Origin: an uncultured delta proteobacterium
GTDB taxonomy: Bacteria > Desulfobacterota > Desulfobacteria > Desulfobacterales > SpSt-501
Assembly (NCBI GenBank): GCA_963828345.1
Contig: CAWHEZ010000004.1
Location: 64,539-128,538, forward strand
Direction of reading: 5' to 3'
DNA length: 64,000 nucleotides
Part shown: in pieces, positions 41,108 to 57,413 of the stretch
How positions within the stretch are numbered: the stretch's first letter is position 1
Layout of the letters: each line of letters begins with the position of its first letter
Position numbers and translations under genes: made by a program
The notes under the pieces: model-generated
What the model was told of the DNA's origin: nothing
Databases searched by the model: none
The model's input: the letters and a program-made list of their open reading frames with translations, nothing else

Positions 41108-42559
41108 CTACCTCGGCTCGGGCCACTGCCGCACGACCCGGTTTTCGGAATCCAGCAGGGTGATCTGCACACCGTGATCGCCGTCCAGGCGATGCGTGGC
41201 GCAGCTGATTCAGGGATCGTAGGCGCGCACCGCCATTTCGATCCGGTTGAGGATCCCCTCCGTCACCGGCTCGCCCTGGATCAGCATGCGGGCAGCCTGC
41301 TTCACGCTCAGGTTCATGGGGCCCAGGTTGTGGGTGGTCCCGACGATCAGGTTGGCGCGCGTAATCAGCCCGTTTTCGTCCGTCGAGTAGTCGTGGATCA
41401 GCGTCCCGCGCGGGGCTTCCACGCACCCGACGCCGCGGCCGGCGCGCGGCTCGACCTTGGCGCGCACGTTCGGGTCGGTGATCGCGGGGTCCTCCAGGAT
41501 CTCGATCGCGCGCTCGCAGGCGTAGACCTCCTCGATCAGCCGGGCGTAGTGGTAGAGCAGGGTCGCCTGCGCCGGCCGCCCGAAGAGGGAGCGGAACTCC
41601 TCGAGCTCGGCCTGCGCGCGCGGGGTGGCCATGCGGTCGGCCACGTTGATGCGGGCCAGCGTGTTGGCGCGGTAGATGCCCTTGGGGTGGTCCACGTCGA
41701 GCGCGAACCCCTCGTTCCAGCAGCGCGCGTAGGGGAACTTCCCGTAGGAGTTGGGCTCGACGTGCTCGCCCAGGTAGTCCGCGTAGTCCTGGGGGTCGAA
41801 GTCGATGAAGGTCCCGTCGGGCTTCATCAGCCGGATCCGGCCGTCGTAGAGGTTGTGGGCGCCGTCGGCGTCCACCGTCCCGATGAAGCCGGTCGTGATC
41901 ACCCCCAGGGTCCGGATCGCGTCCATGTACTTCGGGAAGACGTTCTGCTTGGCGAAGTCGATCGTGAAGAGCGCGAAGTCGAGCACCTGGCGCATCTTGG
42001 CCAGGATGTCCACGCGATCCTCCTCGAGCATGGGCTTGGAGAAGCCGCCCGGGACGCCCGCGATCGGGTGGATGGTTTTGCGCGAGAACTTGTCCAGGAT
42101 CATCTTGACCATGTACCGCATCTTGACGACCTGGGTCGCCAGCTCCGGGTTGGCCTTGGCGATTCCGACCACGTTGCGCACCGCGTAGTCGGCGTCCGGG
42201 CCGATGACGAAATCCGGGGCCGCGAGGAAGTAGAAGTGCAGCAGCTTGTCCTCGGCGTGGGCGATGGTCTGCATCAGCTCGCGCAGCCGGTGGCCGGTCG
42301 GGGTCGGCGTCACCCCGAAGCAGCGGTCCACGGCCTTGTTGGAGGCCAGGTGGTGCATCCAGGGGCAGATGCCGCAGATGCGGCAGACGATGTCCGGCAG
42401 CTCCTCGGCCGGCTTGCCTTCGACGAACTTCTCGAACCCCCGCAGGGACATGTAGTTCACGCGGGCATCCGTGTAGCGGCCCGCCTCGTCCAGCCAGATC
42501 TTGATGGACGCATGGCCCTCGATGCGGGTGATCGGTTGAATGGTGATGGGCGAGGTCAT
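41108..42559 (-). CDS. mvhA: [NiFeSe] hydrogenase large subunit (Mvh/Vhu-type, group 3c-like) with in-frame UGA selenocysteine
   Basis: N-terminal Ni-ligand motif RICGICP. The C-terminal motif reads RAYDP-TGA-ISCATH, that is DP[U]xxCxxH, with the TGA at 41210-41212. The frame stays open for 33 more codons to the TAG at 41108-41110, consistent with a protease-cleaved tail. Confidence 0.85.
41177..41193 (-). promoter_or_regulatory. candidate SECIS hairpin for the mvhA UGA
   Basis: 16 nt after the UGA: AUCGCC-UGGAC-GGCGAU (6-bp stem, G-containing pentaloop). Confidence 0.6.
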
Positions 42560-42560
42560 G

Positions 42561-43501
42561 TCAACTCGATCTCCTTTCGTGAGGTATCGGTTTGAGCAGG
42601 GAGTGCGCCCCGGAGAAGCGCAGCAGCAGCGGCCGGTTGGGGATGGACCGGACGTCGATGCCGTTGGAGGCGAGCGCGTTCACCATGTCCAGCAGCTGGT
42701 TGCCGTCCGGGCGCACCGGCCCGGAGCAGCCCCGGCAGGGCACCCGGGCCGAGATGCAGCGCGGGGTCACCCCGTCGCCCCCGCAGCCGGCGCGCGTGAC
42801 GGGCCCCATGCACAGGAACCCCTGCTCCAGCAGGCAGCGCATCCGGTCGAGCGGCTCGCCCGGTTCGTGGTAGAAGGGCGCCTGCAGGAAGCGCCGCACC
42901 TGCTTGACCTCGCCCTTGCCCTTGCGCACGGTCGGGCAGGTGTCGCACACACTGTGCGACGGCACCTTGAGCGGGGTGCCCTGCACGAGGGCGACCAGCG
43001 CGCTGAAGATGTGGTCCGGGTGGGGCGGGCAGCCGGGCAGATGGATGTCCACCTTGATCTTCTCGTCCACGGCGTAGCAGGCATCCAGCAGCTCGGGGAT
43101 GTCCTCGGACGGGTAGGCATCGGGCCGGTCGGTGGTCTCGGTGGAGAAGGCCCGCTCCAGGATCTCGCCGTGGTGAACGAGTTGGCCAGCGCCGGGATCC
43201 CGCCGTGGGTCGCGCAGGTCCCGAGCGCGATGATGATCTTGCACTTCTTGCGCATCTCGTGCGCGACCTCGAGGTGCTCCGAGTTGCGGATCCCGCCGCT
43301 GATGAGGCCGACGTCGGCTTCCGGCAGATCCATGTGCGCCTTCTCCCCGGTCTGGCCGTAGTATTTGCTGTCCACCAGCGCGGGGAGGTGGACGATGTCC
43401 GCCACCTGGAGCACGTCCAGCAGGCGCTCGCCCATGTCGAGAATCGAGATCTCGCACCCCGAGCACGAATTCAACCACTCGCTTGATACGCGGACACCCA
43501 T
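42561..43501 (-). pseudogene. mvhG: [NiFe] hydrogenase small subunit (MvhG-like), one frameshift
   Basis: MGVRVSSEWLNSCSGCEISILD...ALGTCATHGGIPALANS is in the frame of ORF 42767..43501. VHHGEILERAFS...HLPGCPPHPDHIF...PCRGCSGP follows in the frame of ORF 42561..43478. One nt is missing around 43180. The stop is 1 nt before the mvhA ATG. Confidence 0.85.
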
Positions 43502-43623: not shown

Positions 43624-44919
43624 CTACAGTCCTACTTCGGCCAGCTCCGGGCCGAGGTAGGCGCGTTCGTTTTCGCCCAGGCAGCCCATGGCGAGGCAGA
43701 TCAGCGTCCAGAGGTGCACCGTGTGCCAGCCGCCCTTGAAGTGCTCGCTCAGGTCGTGGATCTGCGAGTGGCAGTTGTGGCACGGGGCGATGCAGTACGG
43801 CGCGCCGGTCGCCAGGATCTGGTCGGTCTTGATCTTGCCGAAGGCGCGCCGGCCTTCGGCGTAGCCGGCCTGGAGCGCGCCGCCGCCGCCGCCGCAGCAG
43901 TAGTTGTTCGAGCGGTTGGGCGTCATGTCGACGAAGTTCTCCTCGCCGACCACCCGCTTGACGACGTAGCGCAGGTCCTCGGCGTAGGCGTCGCCGAAGG
44001 TCTTGCGCACCTGGTTGCAGGGGTCCTGCACCGTGAACTTGACCCGGAGGTCCTTGTTCCAGTCCGCGGACACCCGCAGCCGGCCCTCGCGCAGCCACTG
44101 CGCGTAGAGCTGGACGATGGTGGTGATCTCGAAGGAATGAGGGATGTTGTACTTTTGCAGTCCGGCCCGGACTGCGAAGAGCTCGTGCCCTCACTCCGTG
44201 TTGACCCAGTATTTACAGCCCAGGTCGTCGACGGCCTTGGCCTTGATGCGCACGATGCGTTCCCAGCTCTCGTCGTCGGCCAGGAACATGCAGTAGTTCT
44301 CGGCGGCCCAGCCCTTGGTGCCGTAGGTCCAGTCGGCGCCGACCGCGTGCAGGATCTTCCAGAGCGGCACCATCTCGTCGGGCTCGGTCACCGGCTCGCG
44401 CGAGTTCTGGTTCACGAAATACGTCGCCCCCCGCTTGTCCAGAGGCGCCTGGAGGGTCTCCCAGCCGGGCTGGTTGGCGCGCACCTCCTCGAGGACGTCC
44501 TCCACCACGAAGCGGAAGTCCTCCTCCGAGGCGCCCATGGCGCTGCAGCTCTCGTGCTTGAGCGCCATGTCGCAGGAGCCGCGGATGCCCTTGGGCCGCT
44601 CCTCGCGCGGCCAGCTCTTGCGCGCGTGGTAGACCAGCTGCGGGATGTCGATCTTCATCGGGCAGACGTAGATGCAGCGCCAGCAGAGCGTGCAGTTCCA
44701 CACCCACTCGGTCTTGAGGATCTGCTCGTCCAGGCCCATGCTGGCCATGCGCAGGAACTTGCGCGGGTCCATCCCGGCGATCCCGGTGGCCGGACAGCCC
44801 GAGGCGCAGGCGCCGCACGTCAGGCAGGCGTTCAGGTTCCCGCCCTCGGGCAGCAGCTGCATGACCCGGTCTTTGAAGATGCTTTTGCGTTCCTTCGGGA
44901 GCACGATCGGTTCGGTCAT
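43624..44919 (-). CDS. fused HdrC/HdrB-like (HdrD/GlpC-type) Fe-S oxidoreductase with in-frame UGA selenocysteine
   Basis: Two ferredoxin motifs, CLTCGACASGCP and CTLCWRCIYVCP. CCG-domain motif NYCCGGGGG and APCHNCHSQ. The TGA at 44191-44193 sits in WVNTE-TGA-GHELF, where homologues carry ECGH. ORFs 44191..44919 and 43624..44073 are in the same frame. Confidence 0.8.
44157..44175 (-). promoter_or_regulatory. candidate SECIS hairpin for the hdrCB-like UGA
   Basis: 15 nt after the UGA: GCAGUCC-GGGCC-GGACUGC (7-8 bp stem). Confidence 0.6.
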
Positions 44920-44922
44920 GGC

Positions 44923-45378
44923 TCACCTCGCTGCGGCCGACGCCGGGGCCGCCACGGCGGCCTTGCGACGCGGGATGGGGTTCGGGCCGATGCCGCGGAT
45001 CTTTTCGGTGAAGCAGGTCACCACCTCCGCGAAGCGCGGCGCTTCGGCGGACGACACCCACTCGACGCCGTACCGTTCGGGGTCGACCCCCTGGGTTTCG
45101 AGGACCATGCGGACGGCTTCGCTGCGGGCCAGGGCTTTGTGATTACCATCCAGGTAATGACATTCGCCCAGGTGTCAGCCCATCAGGATGACGCCGTCGG
45201 CCCCGCGGCGGAAGGCCTCGACCACCAGCTCCGGGTGCACCATGCCGGAGCACATCACGCGCACCGCGCGCATGTTGGGCGGGTACTGCAGGCGCGAGAC
45301 CCCCGCCAGGTCGCCCCCGGCGTACGCGCACCAGTTGCAGAGGAACCCCAGGATCACCGGTTCGAATTTCTCGCTCAT
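44923..45378 (-). CDS. mvhD: methyl-viologen-reducing hydrogenase delta subunit (MvhD) with in-frame UGA selenocysteine
   Basis: MSEKFEPVILGFLCNWCAYAGGD...GADGVILMG-TGA-HLGECHYLDGNHKA. The family motif is GCHxGxCHY. The TGA lies at 45175-45177. ORF 44923..45108 is in the same frame. Confidence 0.85.
45142..45158 (-). promoter_or_regulatory. candidate SECIS hairpin for the mvhD UGA
   Basis: 16 nt after the UGA: AUUACC-UGGAU-GGUAAU (6-bp stem, pentaloop nearly identical to the mvhA one). Confidence 0.6.
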
Positions 45379-45485: not shown

Positions 45486-45518
45486 GCGGCGAGGCGTACT
45501 GGCAATACGCCGCAACGA
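45486..45518. repeat. dispersed hairpin repeat, copy 2 (GCGAGGCGTACT..ATACGCCGCA)
   Basis: CGCGGCGAGGCGTACTGGCAATACGCCGCAACG in the hdrA-mvhD spacer, with a partial third copy GCCGCGAGGCGTCGGCG at about 45531-45548. Related to 23495-23529. Confidence 0.5.
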
Positions 45519-45551
45519 CGTTTCCTAACGCCGCGAGGCGTCGGCGAAACA

Positions 45552-48500
45552 TCAGGCGACGTCCTCGAGGGCGGCGGCCACCTGCGCCTTCAGCTGCTCC
45601 TGCGTGAAGCCGTGGACGAAGACGCCGCCCTTCGGGCAGGTGGCCGCGCACAGGCCGCACCCCTTGCAGAGCGCCGCGTCGGTGCGGATGCGCCGGTGGG
45701 AGCGACCGTCCTCGCCCGGGTAGTCCTCCAGCGCGATGGCGCGGTAGGGGCAGACGTCCAGGCACAGCGCGCACCCGTCGCAGCTCTCCGTGACGCAGGA
45801 CTTGATGGCGTCGAGCGTCATCTCCGTCTGCGCGAGGATGCTCCCGGCCCGCACGGCGGCCGCCTTGGCCTGGGCGATCGTCTCGTCCATGGGCTTGGGG
45901 TAGTTGCAGAGGCCGGCGACGAACAGCCCGTCCACGGACATGTCCACCGGCCGCAGCTTCGGATGGGCCTCGTTGAGGAAGCCGTCGGCGTTGGCGGCGC
46001 ACTTGAAGAGCTCGACCAGGCCACGGCTTTCGCGCGGCTCGACCGCGGCGGCGAGCACGAGGTAATCCGCCGCAATGGCGAGCGGCAGCTGCAGGATGGG
46101 GTCGAAGACGTCGATCCGCAGGTCGCCGCCCTCGCGCCGGACGAGCGGCTTGCGCTCGAGCTCGTACCGGATGAAGATCACCCCCAGGTCGCGCGCCTTG
46201 CGGTAGAGACCTTCGCGCTCGCCGTAGGTGCGGATGTCGCGGTAGAGCACGTAGACGTTCATCTGCGGGTTGAGGCCCTTCAGCGCCGCGGCCGCCTTCA
46301 CGGCGTGCGTGCAGCAGATCCGGCTGCAGTAGGGGCGGTGCTCGTCGCGCGAGCCGACGCACTGGATGAAGGCCACACTCTGGGCGCGCTTCAGGGCGGC
46401 CGGGTCCTCGCGCAGCAGCCCGTCGAGCTCCAGGTGGGTCAGGACCCGGGGGTCCTCCCCGTAGAGGTACTCGGTCGGCTGAGACTCCTGGCCGCCGATG
46501 GCGAGCACGGCCGCCCCGTAGGCGACCTCGCGCTCCTGGCCGTCGACCTTGACCCGGCTGACGAAGCTGCCCACCGAGCCGGCGGTCGAGGCCAGCTCGG
46601 CCTTCTTGAGCACCTCGATGCGCGGGTGCCGCTCCACGGTCGCGATGAGGGATTCCAGGTGCGGCCGCACGGCCTCGCCCTGGTCGGTCGTGTTGATCCG
46701 CCAGGCGTTGCCGCCGAGCTGGGCGGACTGCTCCAGGAGGGTGGTCTGGAAGCCCTGCTCCGCCAGGCCCAGCGCGGAGTGCATGCCGGCCACCCCGCCG
46801 CCGATCACGAGCGCCTTGGGGATCACGTTGACCCGGCCGCTCGCGATCGGAGTGCTCAGCGCGGCCTTGGCGACCGCCATGCGCACCTGGTCCTTGGCCT
46901 TGGCGGTCGCCCGTTCCGGTTCGCGCTGGTGCACCCACGAGTTCTGATTGCGGATGTTGGCCATCTCGACCAGGTAGGGGTTGAGCGAGGACTCGCGCAG
47001 CGTGTCCTGGAAGAGCGGCTCGTGCGTGCGCGGCGTGCAGGCGGCGATGACGACGCGGTTCAGGCGGTGCTCGGAGATCTTCTTGCCCATGAGCTCCTGG
47101 GTGTCGGCCGAGCAGCTGAAGAGGTTGTTCTCCGCGAGCACGACCCCCGGCAGCGTGCGGGCGTACTTCACGACCTCGTCCACGTTGACGATTCCGGCGA
47201 TGTTGATGCCGCAGGAGCACACGAAGACGCCGATGCGCACCGGTTCGGCGCCTAAACTGCGCTCGGCCGGGTAGCTGCGGGTGCGCGTGAGCTCGCCGCG
47301 GGCGGCGATCAGGGTCGCGGCCGCCTCGCAGGCCGCGGTCGAGGCCTCGGCGACCGAACGCGGGATGGCCTTGGGGGCCTGGAAGGCGCCGGCCACGAAC
47401 ACGCCGGCCCGGTTGGTCGTCACCGGCGCGAAATCCGAGGTGCGCGCGAAACCGTACTCGTCGAGATCGAACTTGAAGACGCGCGCCAGTTCCTGGGCGT
47501 CGCCCGCGGGCTCGAGCCCGACCGACAGCACCGCCAGGTCGAACTCCTCGACCTTGACCTCTCCCTCGTCGGTGCTGTAGCGCATCGACACGCCGTGGTT
47601 GCCGGCCCCGGCCTCGATCGAGTGCGGACGGGCGCGGACGAAGCGCACGCCCTTGTCCTTGGCCCCCTCGTAGAAGCGGTCGAAGTCCTTGCCGTGGCTG
47701 CGGATGTCCATGAAGAAGATGGCCTGCTCCAGCCCGCCGCCGGAGGTGTGCTCCGCGGTCACGAGCGCCTCCTTGATCGCGTACATGCAGCAGACGCTCG
47801 AGCAGTAGCCGTTCTTGCACTGGTTGGTGTTGCGCGAGCCCACGCACTGGATCCAGGCGATGCGCCGCGGCTCCGTGCGGTCGGAGGGCCGCACCAGGTG
47901 CCCCATGCAGGGGCCGCTCGACGAGAGCAGCCGCTCGTACTCGAGGCTGGTGACCACGTCCGGGATGCGCTTGTAGCCGTAGAAATCGAACCCGGAGGGG
48001 TCGAAGGGCTTGAAGCCCGGGGCGAGGATCACCGCGCCGACGTTGAGCGTGGCCACCTCTTCCTTGTCCTCGAAGTTGATGGCCGAGGTGGGGCAGAACT
48101 TCTCGCAGGCCTTGCACTTGCCGCGGGTCAGGTAGATGCAGGTCTGGCCGTCGATCGCGTACTTCAGGGGCACGGACTGGCCGTACTTGATGTAGGCCGC
48201 TGTGCGGTCGTTCAGGCCCAGGTTGAACTCGTCACGGACCTTGCGGGGGCATTTCTGGGCGCAGAGGCCGCAGGCAATGCACTTGTCCATGTCGATGTAG
48301 CGGGGTTTCTTCTTGATCGTGACGGTGAAATTTCCGACGTCACCGGAGACGTCGACCACTTCGGACAGGGTGAGCAACTCCACATTCAGATGCCGGCCGA
48401 CCTCGACCAGTTTGGGTGAGATGATTCACATCGCGCAGTCGTTGGTCGGAAAGGTCTTGTCCAGCTGGGCCATCACGCCGCCGATCCCGGCGCTTTTCTC

Positions 48501-48605
48501 CACCAGATGGACGAAGTAACCCGAGTTGGCGAGGTCGAGGGTCGCCTGCATGCCGGCGATGCCTCCGCCAACCACCAATACGGAACCGATGGGTTTGCCT
48601 GACAT
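45552..48605 (-). CDS. hdrA: large HdrA-like flavoprotein with two tandem HdrA modules and in-frame UGA selenocysteine
   Basis: ATG 48605 with an AGAGGTG RBS. MSGKPIGSVLVVGGGIAGMQATLDLA...DKTFPTNDCAM-TGA-IISPKLVEVGRHLNVELL, with the TGA at 48426-48428. A second FAD module starts at KALVIGGGVAGMHSALGLA. Several CxxCxxCxxxCP ferredoxin motifs. 1,017 aa if read through. Confidence 0.85.
48393..48410 (-). promoter_or_regulatory. candidate SECIS hairpin for the hdrA UGA
   Basis: 15 nt after the UGA: CUGGUC-GAGGUC-GGCCGG (6-bp stem including two G-U pairs, loop containing GGUC). Confidence 0.55.
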
Positions 48606-48872
48606 AGTCACCTCTTTGGCCGTGGAATGAAGGGGGGGGGTGATGCGCGCATCACCCGGGAGGGGAACCGAGTTGGAAAGGACGATCTCCTGCATGACGG
48701 CGACCGGGATGAGTTGCTCGCGGCAGAACTCCGCGAACGCATCCTGCGCGATCATGTATTTCTTCCCGACGGTGGCGCTCGCCCGCAGCTTGCCGCTGCG
48801 GATCCAGTTGGTGACGGTGTTGCGGTGAACGCCGAGCTTTTCGGCGAGCTGTCCGACGCGGATTTCGATCAT
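48606..48872 (-). CDS. excisionase/MerR-like helix-turn-helix DNA-binding protein; in this assembly it has no stop codon and runs in frame into hdrA
   Basis: ATG 48872 with a GGAGG RBS, overlapping the protease stop (ATGA). MIEIRVGQLAEKLGVHRNTVTNWIRSGKLRA is a classic HTH. No stop occurs before the hdrA ATG at 48605. Removing one G from the G9 run (48632-48640) would create a TGA 2 nt before that ATG. Confidence 0.6.
48638..48657. promoter_or_regulatory. 20-bp perfect palindrome upstream of the hdrA start (candidate operator or RNA stem)
   Basis: GGGTGATGCGCGCATCACCC equals its own reverse complement. It lies 33-52 nt upstream of the hdrA ATG and overlaps the end of the G9 run. Confidence 0.6.
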
Positions 48873-49381
48873 GATTCCTCCGATGCATTTGGCGTGGGTC
48901 CGATGGCCGCCAGGATCCGGGCGCACATGGCCGGAATGGCCCGCTGCATGGGCTCGGACAGCCCGGGCCTCACCTCGGACGGCATGCCGGCCACCTGGGC
49001 GACGAACACGTTGATGTCGACCCGCGTTTCGTCCCGGATCTCCTTGAGCAGGTTGATGCCGGGGAACTGGTGCAGCGCGAAGTCGCAGCGCTTCTCGGGC
49101 CGGATCTGGTCGATGTCGATCTCGCAGATTTCCCCGGGGGTCATCGCACGGGAGTCGGTGACGTCGACGATGATGACCTGCCGCGGCTTGCGCGGTGAGA
49201 GGATGATGTCGAAGAGGATGTCGCGGATGGATGTGCCGCAGTCGATGAGGGCCACGGAGTCCGGCAAGGAGTGGTGCTCTTCGAGATGATGAATGACCGC
49301 CGGTCCGAACCCGTCATCTCCGATGAGGAGATTGCCGCAACCCAGAACGAGGCAATCGTATTCGGCGACCGGCTTGAGCAT
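48869..49381 (-). CDS. hydrogenase maturation endopeptidase (HycI/FrhD/HoxM family)
   Basis: LVLGCGNLLIGDDGFGPAV...LIDCGT and ALHQFPG motifs. Preferred start is ATG 49381 (MLKPVAEY); the track ORF uses TTG 49390. Confidence 0.8.
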   Translation of the reverse strand: MLKPVAEYDCLVLGCGNLLIGDDGFGPAVIHHLEEHHSLPDSVALIDCGTSIRDILFDIILSPRKPRQVIIVDVTDSRAMTPGEICEIDIDQIRPEKRCDFALHQFPGINLLKEIRDETRVDINVFVAQVAGMPSEVRPGLSEPMQRAIPAMCARILAAIGPTPNASEES

Positions 49382-49388
49382 GTTGTGC

Positions 49389-49418
49389 AAATTAGGCCAA
49401 AATCAAAAGCGCTGTCAA
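49389..49418 (-). promoter_or_regulatory. candidate sigma70-type promoter of the Hdr/Mvh operon (possibly leaderless)
   Basis: On the minus strand: TTGACA (49418-49413), 18-nt spacer, TAATTT (49394-49389). The ATG at 49381 lies 7 nt downstream and no Shine-Dalgarno is visible. Confidence 0.3.
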
Positions 49419-56009: not shown

Positions 56010-57413
56010 ATGGGCGGAATGTTCGGCATCGCATCCAAGGAAAACTGCGCCGCAGACCTCTTCTACGGCACCGACTACCACTCGCATCTCGGCACCCGCT
56101 ACGGCGGAATGGCCGTGCGCAACCGCACCGGGTTCGAGCGCGCGATCCACACCATCGAGAACAGCTATTTCCGCACCAAGTTCGAATCCGAGCTGCCCAA
56201 GTTCCAGGGCGGCACCGGCATCGGGGTCATCAGCGACACCGACCCGCAGCCCATCTTCATCCGCTCCCACCTCGGCACGTTCGGGGTCGTGACGGTGGGC
56301 AAGATCACGAACATCGACCCGCTGGTGCGGGAGGCCTTCGAGCGGCGCCGCTATTTTTCGGACGTGAACGGCGACAGCATCAACCCCACGGAGCTCGTGG
56401 GGGCGCTCGTCAGCGAGGCGCCCACCTTCGAGGAGGGCATCCGCCGGGCCCAGGAGGTCATTCAAGGGTCCTGCACCCTGCTGCTGCTCTCCGAGACCGG
56501 GCTCTACGCGGCGCGCGACCGCCTCGGCCGCACCCCGCTCGCGATCGGCCGCCGCGAGGGCGCCTTCGCGGTCAGCTCCGAGACCTGCGCCTTCCCGAAC
56601 CTCGGCTTCGAGATCGAACGCTTCGTCGGCCCGGGTGAGATCGTGCGCGTCACCCCCGAGGGGTGCGAAACCCGCGTGCCGGCCGGGCCGCGCATGCAGA
56701 TCTGCTCCTTCCTGTGGGTCTACTACGGCTACCCCGCCTCCGAGTACGAGGGCATCAACGTGGAGCAGGTGCGCAACACCTGCGGCGCGGCGCTGGCCGC
56801 CCGCGACGACGTCGAGATCGACTACGTGGCCGGCATCCCGGACTCGGGCATCGGCCACGCGATCGGGTACGCCACGGCGCGCGGCCTGCCCTACCGGCGG
56901 CCCTTCGTGAAGTACACGCCGACCTGGCCGCGCAGCTTCATGCCCCAGAACCAGCAGATGCGGGACCTCGTGGCGCGCATGAAGCTGATCCCCGTGCGGC
57001 CGCTGATCCGCGACAAGCGGCTGCTCTTCTGCGAGGATTCGATCGTGCGCGGCACCCAGCTGAAGGACACGATCCGGTTCCTCTTCGACTGCGGCGCCCG
57101 CGAGGTCCACATGCGGCCGGCCTGCCCGGTGTTGATCCACCCCTGCGAGTTCATCAACTTCTCGAGCTCGCGCTCGACCCTCGACCTGGCCGGGCGCAAG
57201 GCCATCCAGGACCTGGAGGGCGCGGACGGCGTCCACCTGGAGGAGTACGCCGCGGCCGGGTCGGCCAGGAACACGGCGATGATCGAGGGCATCCGCAGCC
57301 GGCTGCGGCTGACCACCCTGAAGTACCAGCGCCTGGAGGACCTCGTGGCGGCTATCGGGCTGCCCAAGGACAAGCTGTGCACGCACTGCTGGGACGGAAC
57401 TTCCTATTTCTAA
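56010..57413 (+). CDS. amidophosphoribosyltransferase (PurF)-like protein lacking the N-terminal nucleophile Cys
   Basis: 467 aa. Class-II GATase-like N-domain plus a PRTase domain (LLFCEDSIVRGTQ). The position after the initiator reads MFGIAS instead of MCGI. Confidence 0.8.
   Translation: MGGMFGIASKENCAADLFYGTDYHSHLGTRYGGMAVRNRTGFERAIHTIENSYFRTKFESELPKFQGGTGIGVISDTDPQPIFIRSHLGTFGVVTVGKITNIDPLVREAFERRRYFSDVNGDSINPTELVGALVSEAPTFEEGIRRAQEVIQGSCTLLLLSETGLYAARDRLGRTPLAIGRREGAFAVSSETCAFPNLGFEIERFVGPGEIVRVTPEGCETRVPAGPRMQICSFLWVYYGYPASEYEGINVEQVRNTCGAALAARDDVEIDYVAGIPDSGIGHAIGYATARGLPYRRPFVKYTPTWPRSFMPQNQQMRDLVARMKLIPVRPLIRDKRLLFCEDSIVRGTQLKDTIRFLFDCGAREVHMRPACPVLIHPCEFINFSSSRSTLDLAGRKAIQDLEGADGVHLEEYAAAGSARNTAMIEGIRSRLRLTTLKYQRLEDLVAAIGLPKDKLCTHCWDGTSYF

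Follow-up and report, generated by a model that had tools for sequence, protein, structure and literature searches.

We analysed a 64,000-nucleotide (nt) stretch of DNA from an uncultured delta proteobacterium of the order Desulfobacterales (contig CAWHEZ010000004.1), called the window below. Its minus strand carries mvhA, which encodes the large subunit of a hydrogenase. The mvhA open reading frame (ORF) at 42559-41213 closes with ...EMAVRAYDP and runs into a TGA at 41212-41210. After this TGA come 33 sense codons (ISCATHRLDGDHGVQITLLDSENRVVRQWPEPR, 41209-41111) and a TAG at 41110-41108. A sequence-only reading of this stretch had proposed that the TGA is read as selenocysteine (Sec), and the coordinates, the residue string and the count of 33 codons that it gave proved exact when the sequence was re-read. 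Our analysis, with an estimated probability of about 0.93, supports the insertion of Sec, as residue 450, into a [NiFeSe] large subunit of the fused VhuA/VhuU type, directed by a selenocysteine insertion sequence (SECIS) in the mRNA. The elements on which this rests are the following.

42559..41108, minus strand: complete mvhA coding sequence, 483 codons including the predicted Sec450, ending in TAG (41110-41108); it encodes the large subunit of a [NiFeSe] hydrogenase of group 3c, Mvh/Vhu type
42353..42382, minus strand: N-terminal Ni-binding motif R60-I-C62-G-I-C65-P-W-M-H69 (RxCGxCxxxH), from the translation and aligned to solved MvhA/VhuA
41212..41210, minus strand: UGA, predicted Sec codon for residue 450, first ligand of DP-U-IS-C-AT-H
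41193..41177, minus strand: putative SECIS hairpin AUCGCC-UGGAC-GGCGAU with a 6-bp stem and a 5-nt loop, 16 nt after the UGA and encoded by H456-D461
41111..41191, minus strand: C-terminal extension of 27 codons (R457-R483) after the CxxH histidine, predicted substrate of a maturation endopeptidase

Reading frame, motifs and conservation of mvhA

With read-through, the C-terminal motif of MvhA is D448-P-U450-IS-C453-AT-H456. The UGA aligns on the first Cys of DPCxxCxxH in solved Cys-type MvhA, the 'RAYDPCLSCATH' of the solved chains aligns residue for residue with RAYDP-U-ISCATH, and the tails behind the motif are homologous too. This alignment bears out the earlier proposal that read-through restores the second Ni-ligand motif as DP-U-xx-C-xx-H. 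As that proposal also held, MvhA would lack two Ni ligands without read-through, the product ending at Pro449. Inspection of the sequence between the TGA and the CxxH motif uncovered no ATG, GTG or TTG and no ribosome-binding site (RBS), and therefore no separate small gene that could supply CxxH.

MvhA matches the Pfam family NiFeSe_Hases with 117.8 bits. The suggested alignment with [NiFeSe] large subunits was carried out and gave as best match in the PDB the methanococcal VhuA chain 9sfi_g (E=1.4e-122), a chain of 418 aa that ends before the C-terminal motif; further matches were 9sw2_F (E=1.8e-116) and 5odc_F (E=5e-113). The 27-aa VhuU chain of PDB 9sfi matches MvhA residues 432-456, so that the VhuA and VhuU chains are both colinear with MvhA. 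Likewise, the best NCBIfam matches were VhuA (459 bits, residues 4-427) and the selenoprotein subunit VhuU (38.8 bits, residues 434-461). The NCBIfam and 9sfi matches agree with the claim that Sec would replace the first Cys as it does in [NiFeSe] enzymes. Both NCBIfam scores lie under the equivalog cut-offs (for VhuA 459 vs 800), and MvhA is therefore not the split methanococcal equivalog; these matches identify it as a bacterial version, in one piece, of the Vhu/Mvh group 3c [NiFeSe] large subunit. To the periplasmic HysA proteins it is only remotely related, with E values of about 1e-30 to 1e-37 in the PDB and an NCBIfam HysA score of 144.6 bits vs a cut-off of 780.

The conservation of the TGA was then explored. 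In 9 mvhA orthologues from the same genus and from other families of the order (74-99% identity), one in-frame TGA each was found, and the match continues past it to residue 481-483. A scan of GTDB representative genomes gave 80 further mvhA loci, bringing the set to 81 sequences at 74-99% identity, from Desulfobacterales, Desulfatibacillum, Desulfosudis, Desulfosarcina, Desulfoluna, Desulfacinum, Desulfamplus, Syntrophobacteraceae (74-78% identical) and others. Cultured carriers of the orthologue include Desulfatibacillum alkenivorans DSM 16219 (77% identical), Desulfosarcina widdelii PP31 (76%) and Desulfoluna limicola ASN36 (74%). TGA stands at the Sec codon in 81/81 orthologues and is followed by [IVM]SCATH[RC]LDG and a tail of 24-35 residues, the tail pattern after CxxH being kept across the whole set. 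The sequence-only reading had suggested looking for relatives that end at DP, with the motif provided by a separate small gene, and none of the 81 orthologues is built in this way. As judged from these sequences, the read-through alignment and the conservation of the TGA and of the downstream frame are confirmed to be far beyond chance.

The hairpin downstream of the UGA

Counted from the U of the UGA, nt 20-25 pair with nt 31-36 to form the stem of the hairpin, which closes an invariant loop UGGA[C/U]; the GG of this loop lies at +24/+25. In an 80-sequence alignment, 97.9% of the stem cells were paired. At pair 21:35, 56 sequences have U:A, 20 have C:G and 1 has U.G; at pair 22:34, 74 have C:G and 6 have U:A. 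The covariation score of the hairpin was reached by 0/500 shuffles, slid-register controls were 17-67% paired, and RNAalifold independently gave the same helix as the comparative analysis. The hairpin is absent from the Cys-type paralogues, where 0-2 of the 6 pairs form in the same register.

The codons that encode the stem suggest which molecule is under constraint. The four-fold-degenerate third positions within it (CGC, CUG, GGC) are invariant, while those of the upstream Ala and Thr codons vary freely. Where a C:G pair has been swapped for U:A, the swap is accompanied by the amino-acid changes Arg to Cys and Asp/Gly to Lys/Ser. As stem swaps are paid for in amino-acid changes, the constraint acts on the RNA and not on the protein. 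We regard this comparative evidence as decisive in pointing to 41177-41193 as a real bacterial SECIS.

The element overlaps the point where the protease is predicted to cut and the beginning of the tail, whose first residues, RLDG[D/G], would thus be fixed by the hairpin, the changes of R to C and of D to K/S following the base-pair swaps, which makes the mvhA SECIS a clean case of RNA structure dictating protein sequence.

The gene cluster and a proposed mechanism

On the minus strand mvhA is the last gene of a cluster that runs, in order, through a maturation protease, an HTH_17 segment, a doubled hdrA, mvhD, an HdrC/B gene (GlpC-type), mvhG and mvhA, with a 2-hydroxyacid dehydrogenase gene downstream. 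The genes ahead of mvhA are the following.

49390..48869, minus strand: maturation endopeptidase of the HycI/FrhD family, first gene of the cluster (TIGR00072 113.6 bits, cut-off 47.45; frhD 105 bits; Pfam HycI 64.2 bits)
48605..45552, minus strand: double-module hdrA with a UGA at 48428-48426 in ...FPTNDCAM-U-IISPK (NCBIfam HdrA2 949 bits)
45378..44923, minus strand: mvhD with a UGA at 45177-45175 in ...ILMG-U-HLGECHY
44919..43624, minus strand: HdrC/HdrB-like gene (GlpC-type, Fer4 and CCG) with a UGA at 44193-44191 in ...WVNTE-U-GHELF
43501..42561, minus strand: mvhG, small subunit, broken into two frames in this assembly, where a G-run at about 43168 is 1 nt short

The UGAs of hdrA, mvhD and the HdrC/B-like gene lie at known Sec positions, and each has a hairpin behind it. 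That of mvhD (AUUACC-UGGAU-GGUAAU, 16-nt spacer) is a near-duplicate of the mvhA element. In hdrA the spacer is 15 nt, the stem 7 bp and the loop AGGU; in the HdrC/B-like gene the spacer is again 15 nt, the stem 8 bp and the loop GGC. The elements of mvhA and mvhD thus belong to one nearly uniform SECIS subclass (16-nt spacer, 6 bp, UGGAY loop), unlike those of hdrA and hdrCB.

The first gene of the cluster bears on the fate of the tail. MvhA and other [NiFe] large subunits are made as preproteins that are clipped after DPCxxCxxH/R (Kaster et al. 2011, PMC3087415). Several deposited mature large-subunit chains end exactly at the CxxH His (e.g. 5xf9_D, ...CATH), and comparison with PDB chains shows the tail of MvhA to be homologous to that of methanogen MvhA. 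The view taken in the sequence-only reading, that the residues after the His are the expected endopeptidase substrate, is in line with these data and with the protease gene at 48869-49390. It is well supported that the tail after His456 is a substrate of the HycI/FrhD-family protease of the operon, which would cleave it. The specificity of this protease for MvhA is suggested by its operon position.

From these elements the following mechanism can be proposed. The ribosome would pass the UGA at 41212-41210 without terminating, as the 17-nt hairpin at 41193-41177 acts as a bacterial SECIS and recruits SelB.GTP.Sec-tRNA(Sec), presumably by binding SelB, and Sec would be inserted as MvhA residue 450. 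The Ni-Fe centre would then be ligated by Sec450 and Cys453 (DPUxxCxxH) together with Cys62 and Cys65 (RxCGxCxxxH). After metal insertion the HycI/FrhD-type protease would cut off the 27-residue tail behind His456. The mature MvhA would join MvhG, MvhD(Sec), the doubled HdrA(Sec) and the HdrCB/GlpC-like(Sec) protein in a flavin-based electron-bifurcating, H2-oxidising complex that passes electrons to a putative acceptor.

Two further features of the cluster were observed. The HTH_17 (excisionase/MerR-like) segment at window 48606-48872, minus strand, is in frame with hdrA with no intervening stop. The two could be fused; alternatively, an indel may have removed the stop of a separate small regulator, or hdrA may start further inside the frame, at ATG 48605. 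Between hdrA and mvhD, directly behind the stop of hdrA (window 45490-45552, minus strand), lie strong stem-loops of about -30 kcal/mol over 66 nt, which may be an mRNA processing, stability or attenuation element of the operon.

Outside the window, other hydrogenase large-subunit genes of the same genome (G000) came to light. A Cys-type paralogue at G000:C29:31530-32966, 46% identical, was considered as a Vhc-like Cys back-up Mvh and was rejected, its NuoF-like, NuoG-like and HoxY-like neighbours being those of a Hox/Bfu-type NAD-linked hydrogenase; in the hairpin analysis it served solely as a negative control. The paralogue has a short C-terminal tail (...THALGQMPLEMS before the stop) vs about 27 residues in relatives, which may be an indel artefact. 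At G000:C41:80596-82248, plus strand, a group 1 periplasmic-type [NiFe] large subunit reads ...VQR-T-C-G-V-UGA-T-Y-I-H. Its UGA falls at the second (bridging) Cys of the N-terminal RxCGxC, and at its C terminus it has the usual Cys motif, DPCIACAVH. Behind the UGA lies a SECIS-like hairpin (15-nt spacer, 8-bp stem CUGUCCUC/GAGGGCAG, GGU loop), and the same single TGA was found in many relatives. By its sequence this protein is of the rare N-terminal CxxU hydrogenase type noted by Baltazar 2011, as quoted in PMC13582414.

Alternative readings and known systems

Several observations weigh against Sec insertion into a working MvhA. Folded as a single sequence, the region 41150-41215 shows the hairpin, at a stability unexceptional for GC-rich RNA (z = -0.44), and an Rfam gathering scan of the window was without matches, no Rfam family fitting the hairpin. 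The sequence-only reading had recommended folding the RNA near 41170-41212. A SECIS at 41177-41193 emerged from the comparative analysis, which was used because the single-sequence fold was not significant alone. Furthermore, every method used to look for selB and tRNA-Sec in this 97.5%-complete assembly gave a negative result. Searching the genome for SelB with PF09107 and TIGR00475 returned only EF-Tu, IF2 and similar proteins, and a search for tRNA-Sec with RF01852 gave nothing above the cut-off. A motif scan and blastn-short with the relatives' selC and selC* were negative as well. Two Aragorn calls, 'tRNA-???' on contig C18 and 'tRNA-Ser(act)' on contig C13, were examined as tRNA-Sec and dismissed as false positives. 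Finally, mvhG is frameshifted in this assembly (frames 43501-42767 and 43478-42561).

The distribution of the machinery in the genus puts the missing genes in context. SelB is present in 24/26 genomes, and tRNA-Sec scores above the Rfam cut-off in 22/26. In the sister genome G013 (~95% nucleotide identity), selB lies at C2:8286-10181. Contig C2 of G000 starts at the position homologous to G013:C2:22132, so that selB would lie about 12 kb past the contig end; the roughly 22 kb around it (G013:C2:1-22131) are present in G013 and absent from G000, the break being the end of contig C2. Given this synteny, we read the absence of selB as an assembly gap and not as a loss. tRNA-Sec is unassembled in both G000 and G013.

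The frameshift in mvhG raises the question of whether mvhA is an intact selenoprotein gene in an operon that has recently begun to decay, its hydrogenase being non-functional here; such a scenario is compatible with Sec insertion. A 1-nt deletion in a G-run, GG here vs GGG in G013, splits mvhG, which is intact in G013 and in all other relatives examined. However, many isolated 1-nt indels separate G000 from G013 in coding DNA (e.g. 38041, 38508, 56150-56779), a pattern typical of consensus errors, and for this reason an assembly error is the likelier cause. In addition, mvhA, mvhD, hdrA and hdrCB are otherwise intact, mvhA being 99% identical to the G013 copy. To judge from this comparison, the frameshift is probably an assembly error, and a non-functional hydrogenase is unlikely.

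One could also imagine that the UGA is read as Cys, always or under scarce selenium, by tRNA(ReC)/SelC* and a second SelB acting at the same SECIS. Decoding of UGA as Cys at SECIS elements by tRNA(ReC)/SelC* has been described (PMC13582414), and selB and selC of G000 are unassembled. A second SelB is found in 6/26 genus members, at least five of which have another tRNA-Sec-like gene adjoining it. In G018 this additional tRNA combines a UCA anticodon with a U discriminator (G in the canonical tRNA), which fits the published tRNA(ReC) criterion (PMC13582414), and the second SelB/tRNA pair occurs together with a UGA-type mvhA in G012, G018 and G022. This alternative is nonetheless very unlikely for the mvhA studied here. 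No tRNA(ReC) or SelB* sequence was detectable in the G000 assembly, which does encode SelA (528 bits) and a SelD that itself holds one in-frame TGA, and these make sense only with Sec synthesis. G004 (reported 100% complete) and G013 (77% complete) have a UGA-type mvhA and only one SelB. Moreover, TGA is kept throughout the orthologues though TGC/TGT is one mutation away, which argues for selection for Sec itself.

The second SelB genes are an observation in their own right. At G018:C27:257000-260200 the paralogue adjoins a 92-nt tRNA-Sec-like gene and coexists with canonical SelB and a G73 tRNA-Sec. The same kind of SelB*/tRNA pair was found in G005, G007, G012 and G022, and in G006 only a selB-tRNA pair of the second type was found.

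A broader possibility for the genus is that one mvhA gene yields a [NiFeSe] or a [NiFe] enzyme, depending on delivery at the UGA by SelB/tRNA-Sec or by SelB*/tRNA(ReC). We consider this unlikely. If true, such dual decoding would be a one-gene alternative to the methanococcal two-gene Vhu/Vhc selenium-responsive switch, and the SECIS subclasses would let two SelB systems discriminate between UGA sites.

That the UGA is a true stop, leaving a 449-residue MvhA without two Ni ligands, either as a pseudogene or completed by a separate VhuU-like peptide, has next to no chance of being right and is, in our view, already effectively refuted by the comparative data: public protein sets do record MvhA in this form, and methanococci do split the subunit into VhuA and VhuU, but the UGA sits inside the DP-U motif, so that any peptide begun behind it would be without the Sec/Cys ligand, and CxxH is preceded by neither a start codon nor an RBS. 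The downstream frame, motif and tail are kept in every orthologue, a covarying SECIS follows the UGA, and bacteria of several families would not all have fixed a nonsense mutation.

The records themselves deserve attention, as the practical value of the finding is in annotation. In a collection of 5.8 billion proteins, the best 120 MvhA matches are all 449-455 aa long, i.e. cut at the UGA, and they include NCBI and UniRef records from the cultured Desulfacinum infernum and Desulfamplus magnetovallimortis. The MvhA family is systematically mis-called in public protein records, and no NCBIfam equivalog exists for the fused bacterial form. The SECIS pattern (16-nt spacer, A[U/C][C/U]GCC-UGGAY-GGC[G/A][A/G]U) could serve to correct truncated MvhA calls.

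SECIS-directed Sec insertion into MvhA can be placed among known systems. Five-gene operons hdrA-frhD-GlpC-frhG-frhA, in which HdrA, FrhD, GlpC and FrhA are selenoproteins and hdrA is doubled, were described in Syntrophobacter fumaroxidans and Desulfotalea psychrophila (Zhang et al. 2006, PMC1794560), and a Sec-containing MvhA2DG with a Sec-HdrA1 cluster in Desulfobacterium autotrophicum HRM2 (Strittmatter et al. 2009, PMC2702500). MvhA/VhuA/VhuU (UxxC) is listed as an experimentally verified selenoprotein family of sulfate reducers and methanogens (2026 review, PMC13188914), and in Groups 1 and 3 the canonical place of Sec is the C-terminal UxxC (Takano et al. 2026, PMC13582414). Compared by published description, the cluster in the window has the same genes as those of S. 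fumaroxidans, D. psychrophila and HRM2, with Sec in HdrA, MvhD (FrhD), the GlpC/HdrCB-like protein and MvhA (FrhA), a doubled hdrA and a bacterial-type SECIS inside the ORF. Unlike the S. fumaroxidans and HRM2 clusters, it belongs to a metagenome-assembled genome of an uncultured Desulfobacterales and has the protease and the HTH_17 segment upstream and the 2-hydroxyacid dehydrogenase downstream. The proposal of a Sec-MvhA operon is thus correct but not new in kind, the enzyme type being known since 2006-2009. For one more uncultured Desulfobacterales lineage, it confirms the electron-bifurcating Hdr/Mvh module, rich in selenium, that Syntrophobacter and Desulfobacterium are known to have.

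The methanococcal VhuA and VhuU (PDB 9sfi; NF041785/NF041786) resemble MvhA in belonging to group 3c and in having Sec first in the C-terminal UxxC, and the Vhu enzyme associates with VhuD/HdrA. The subunit is split there into a 418-aa VhuA and a VhuU of roughly 25 aa, whereas it is a single polypeptide here. In archaea the SECIS is located in the 3' untranslated region, whereas the mvhA element is part of the coding sequence and begins 16 nt behind the UGA. The MvhA of Methanothermobacter and Methanothermococcus (5odc_F, 9sw2_F) is colinear over its full length, with the RAYDP-x-xSCATH motif and a homologous tail (compared with ...THRLDGDHGVQITLLDSENRVVR), but has Cys for Sec and no SECIS. 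The periplasmic HysA of Desulfovibrio vulgaris and Desulfomicrobium baculatum (PDB 2wpn, 5jsu, 1cc1) shares Sec at the equivalent Ni ligand of DPUxxCxxH and a bacterial SECIS, and differs in being a group 1 periplasmic enzyme and a remote relative only.

The hairpin can be compared with the paradigm of a bacterial SECIS, that of Escherichia coli fdhF, a short stem-loop directly 3' of the UGA in the ORF whose apical loop has G residues at a distance of about 24-25 nt from the UGA. Both are short stem-loops within the ORF with the loop G at about 24-25 nt. The mvhA element differs from that of fdhF in its 16-nt spacer vs 11 nt to the minimal upper stem, its 6-bp stem and its UGGAY loop, and it has no evident bulged U.

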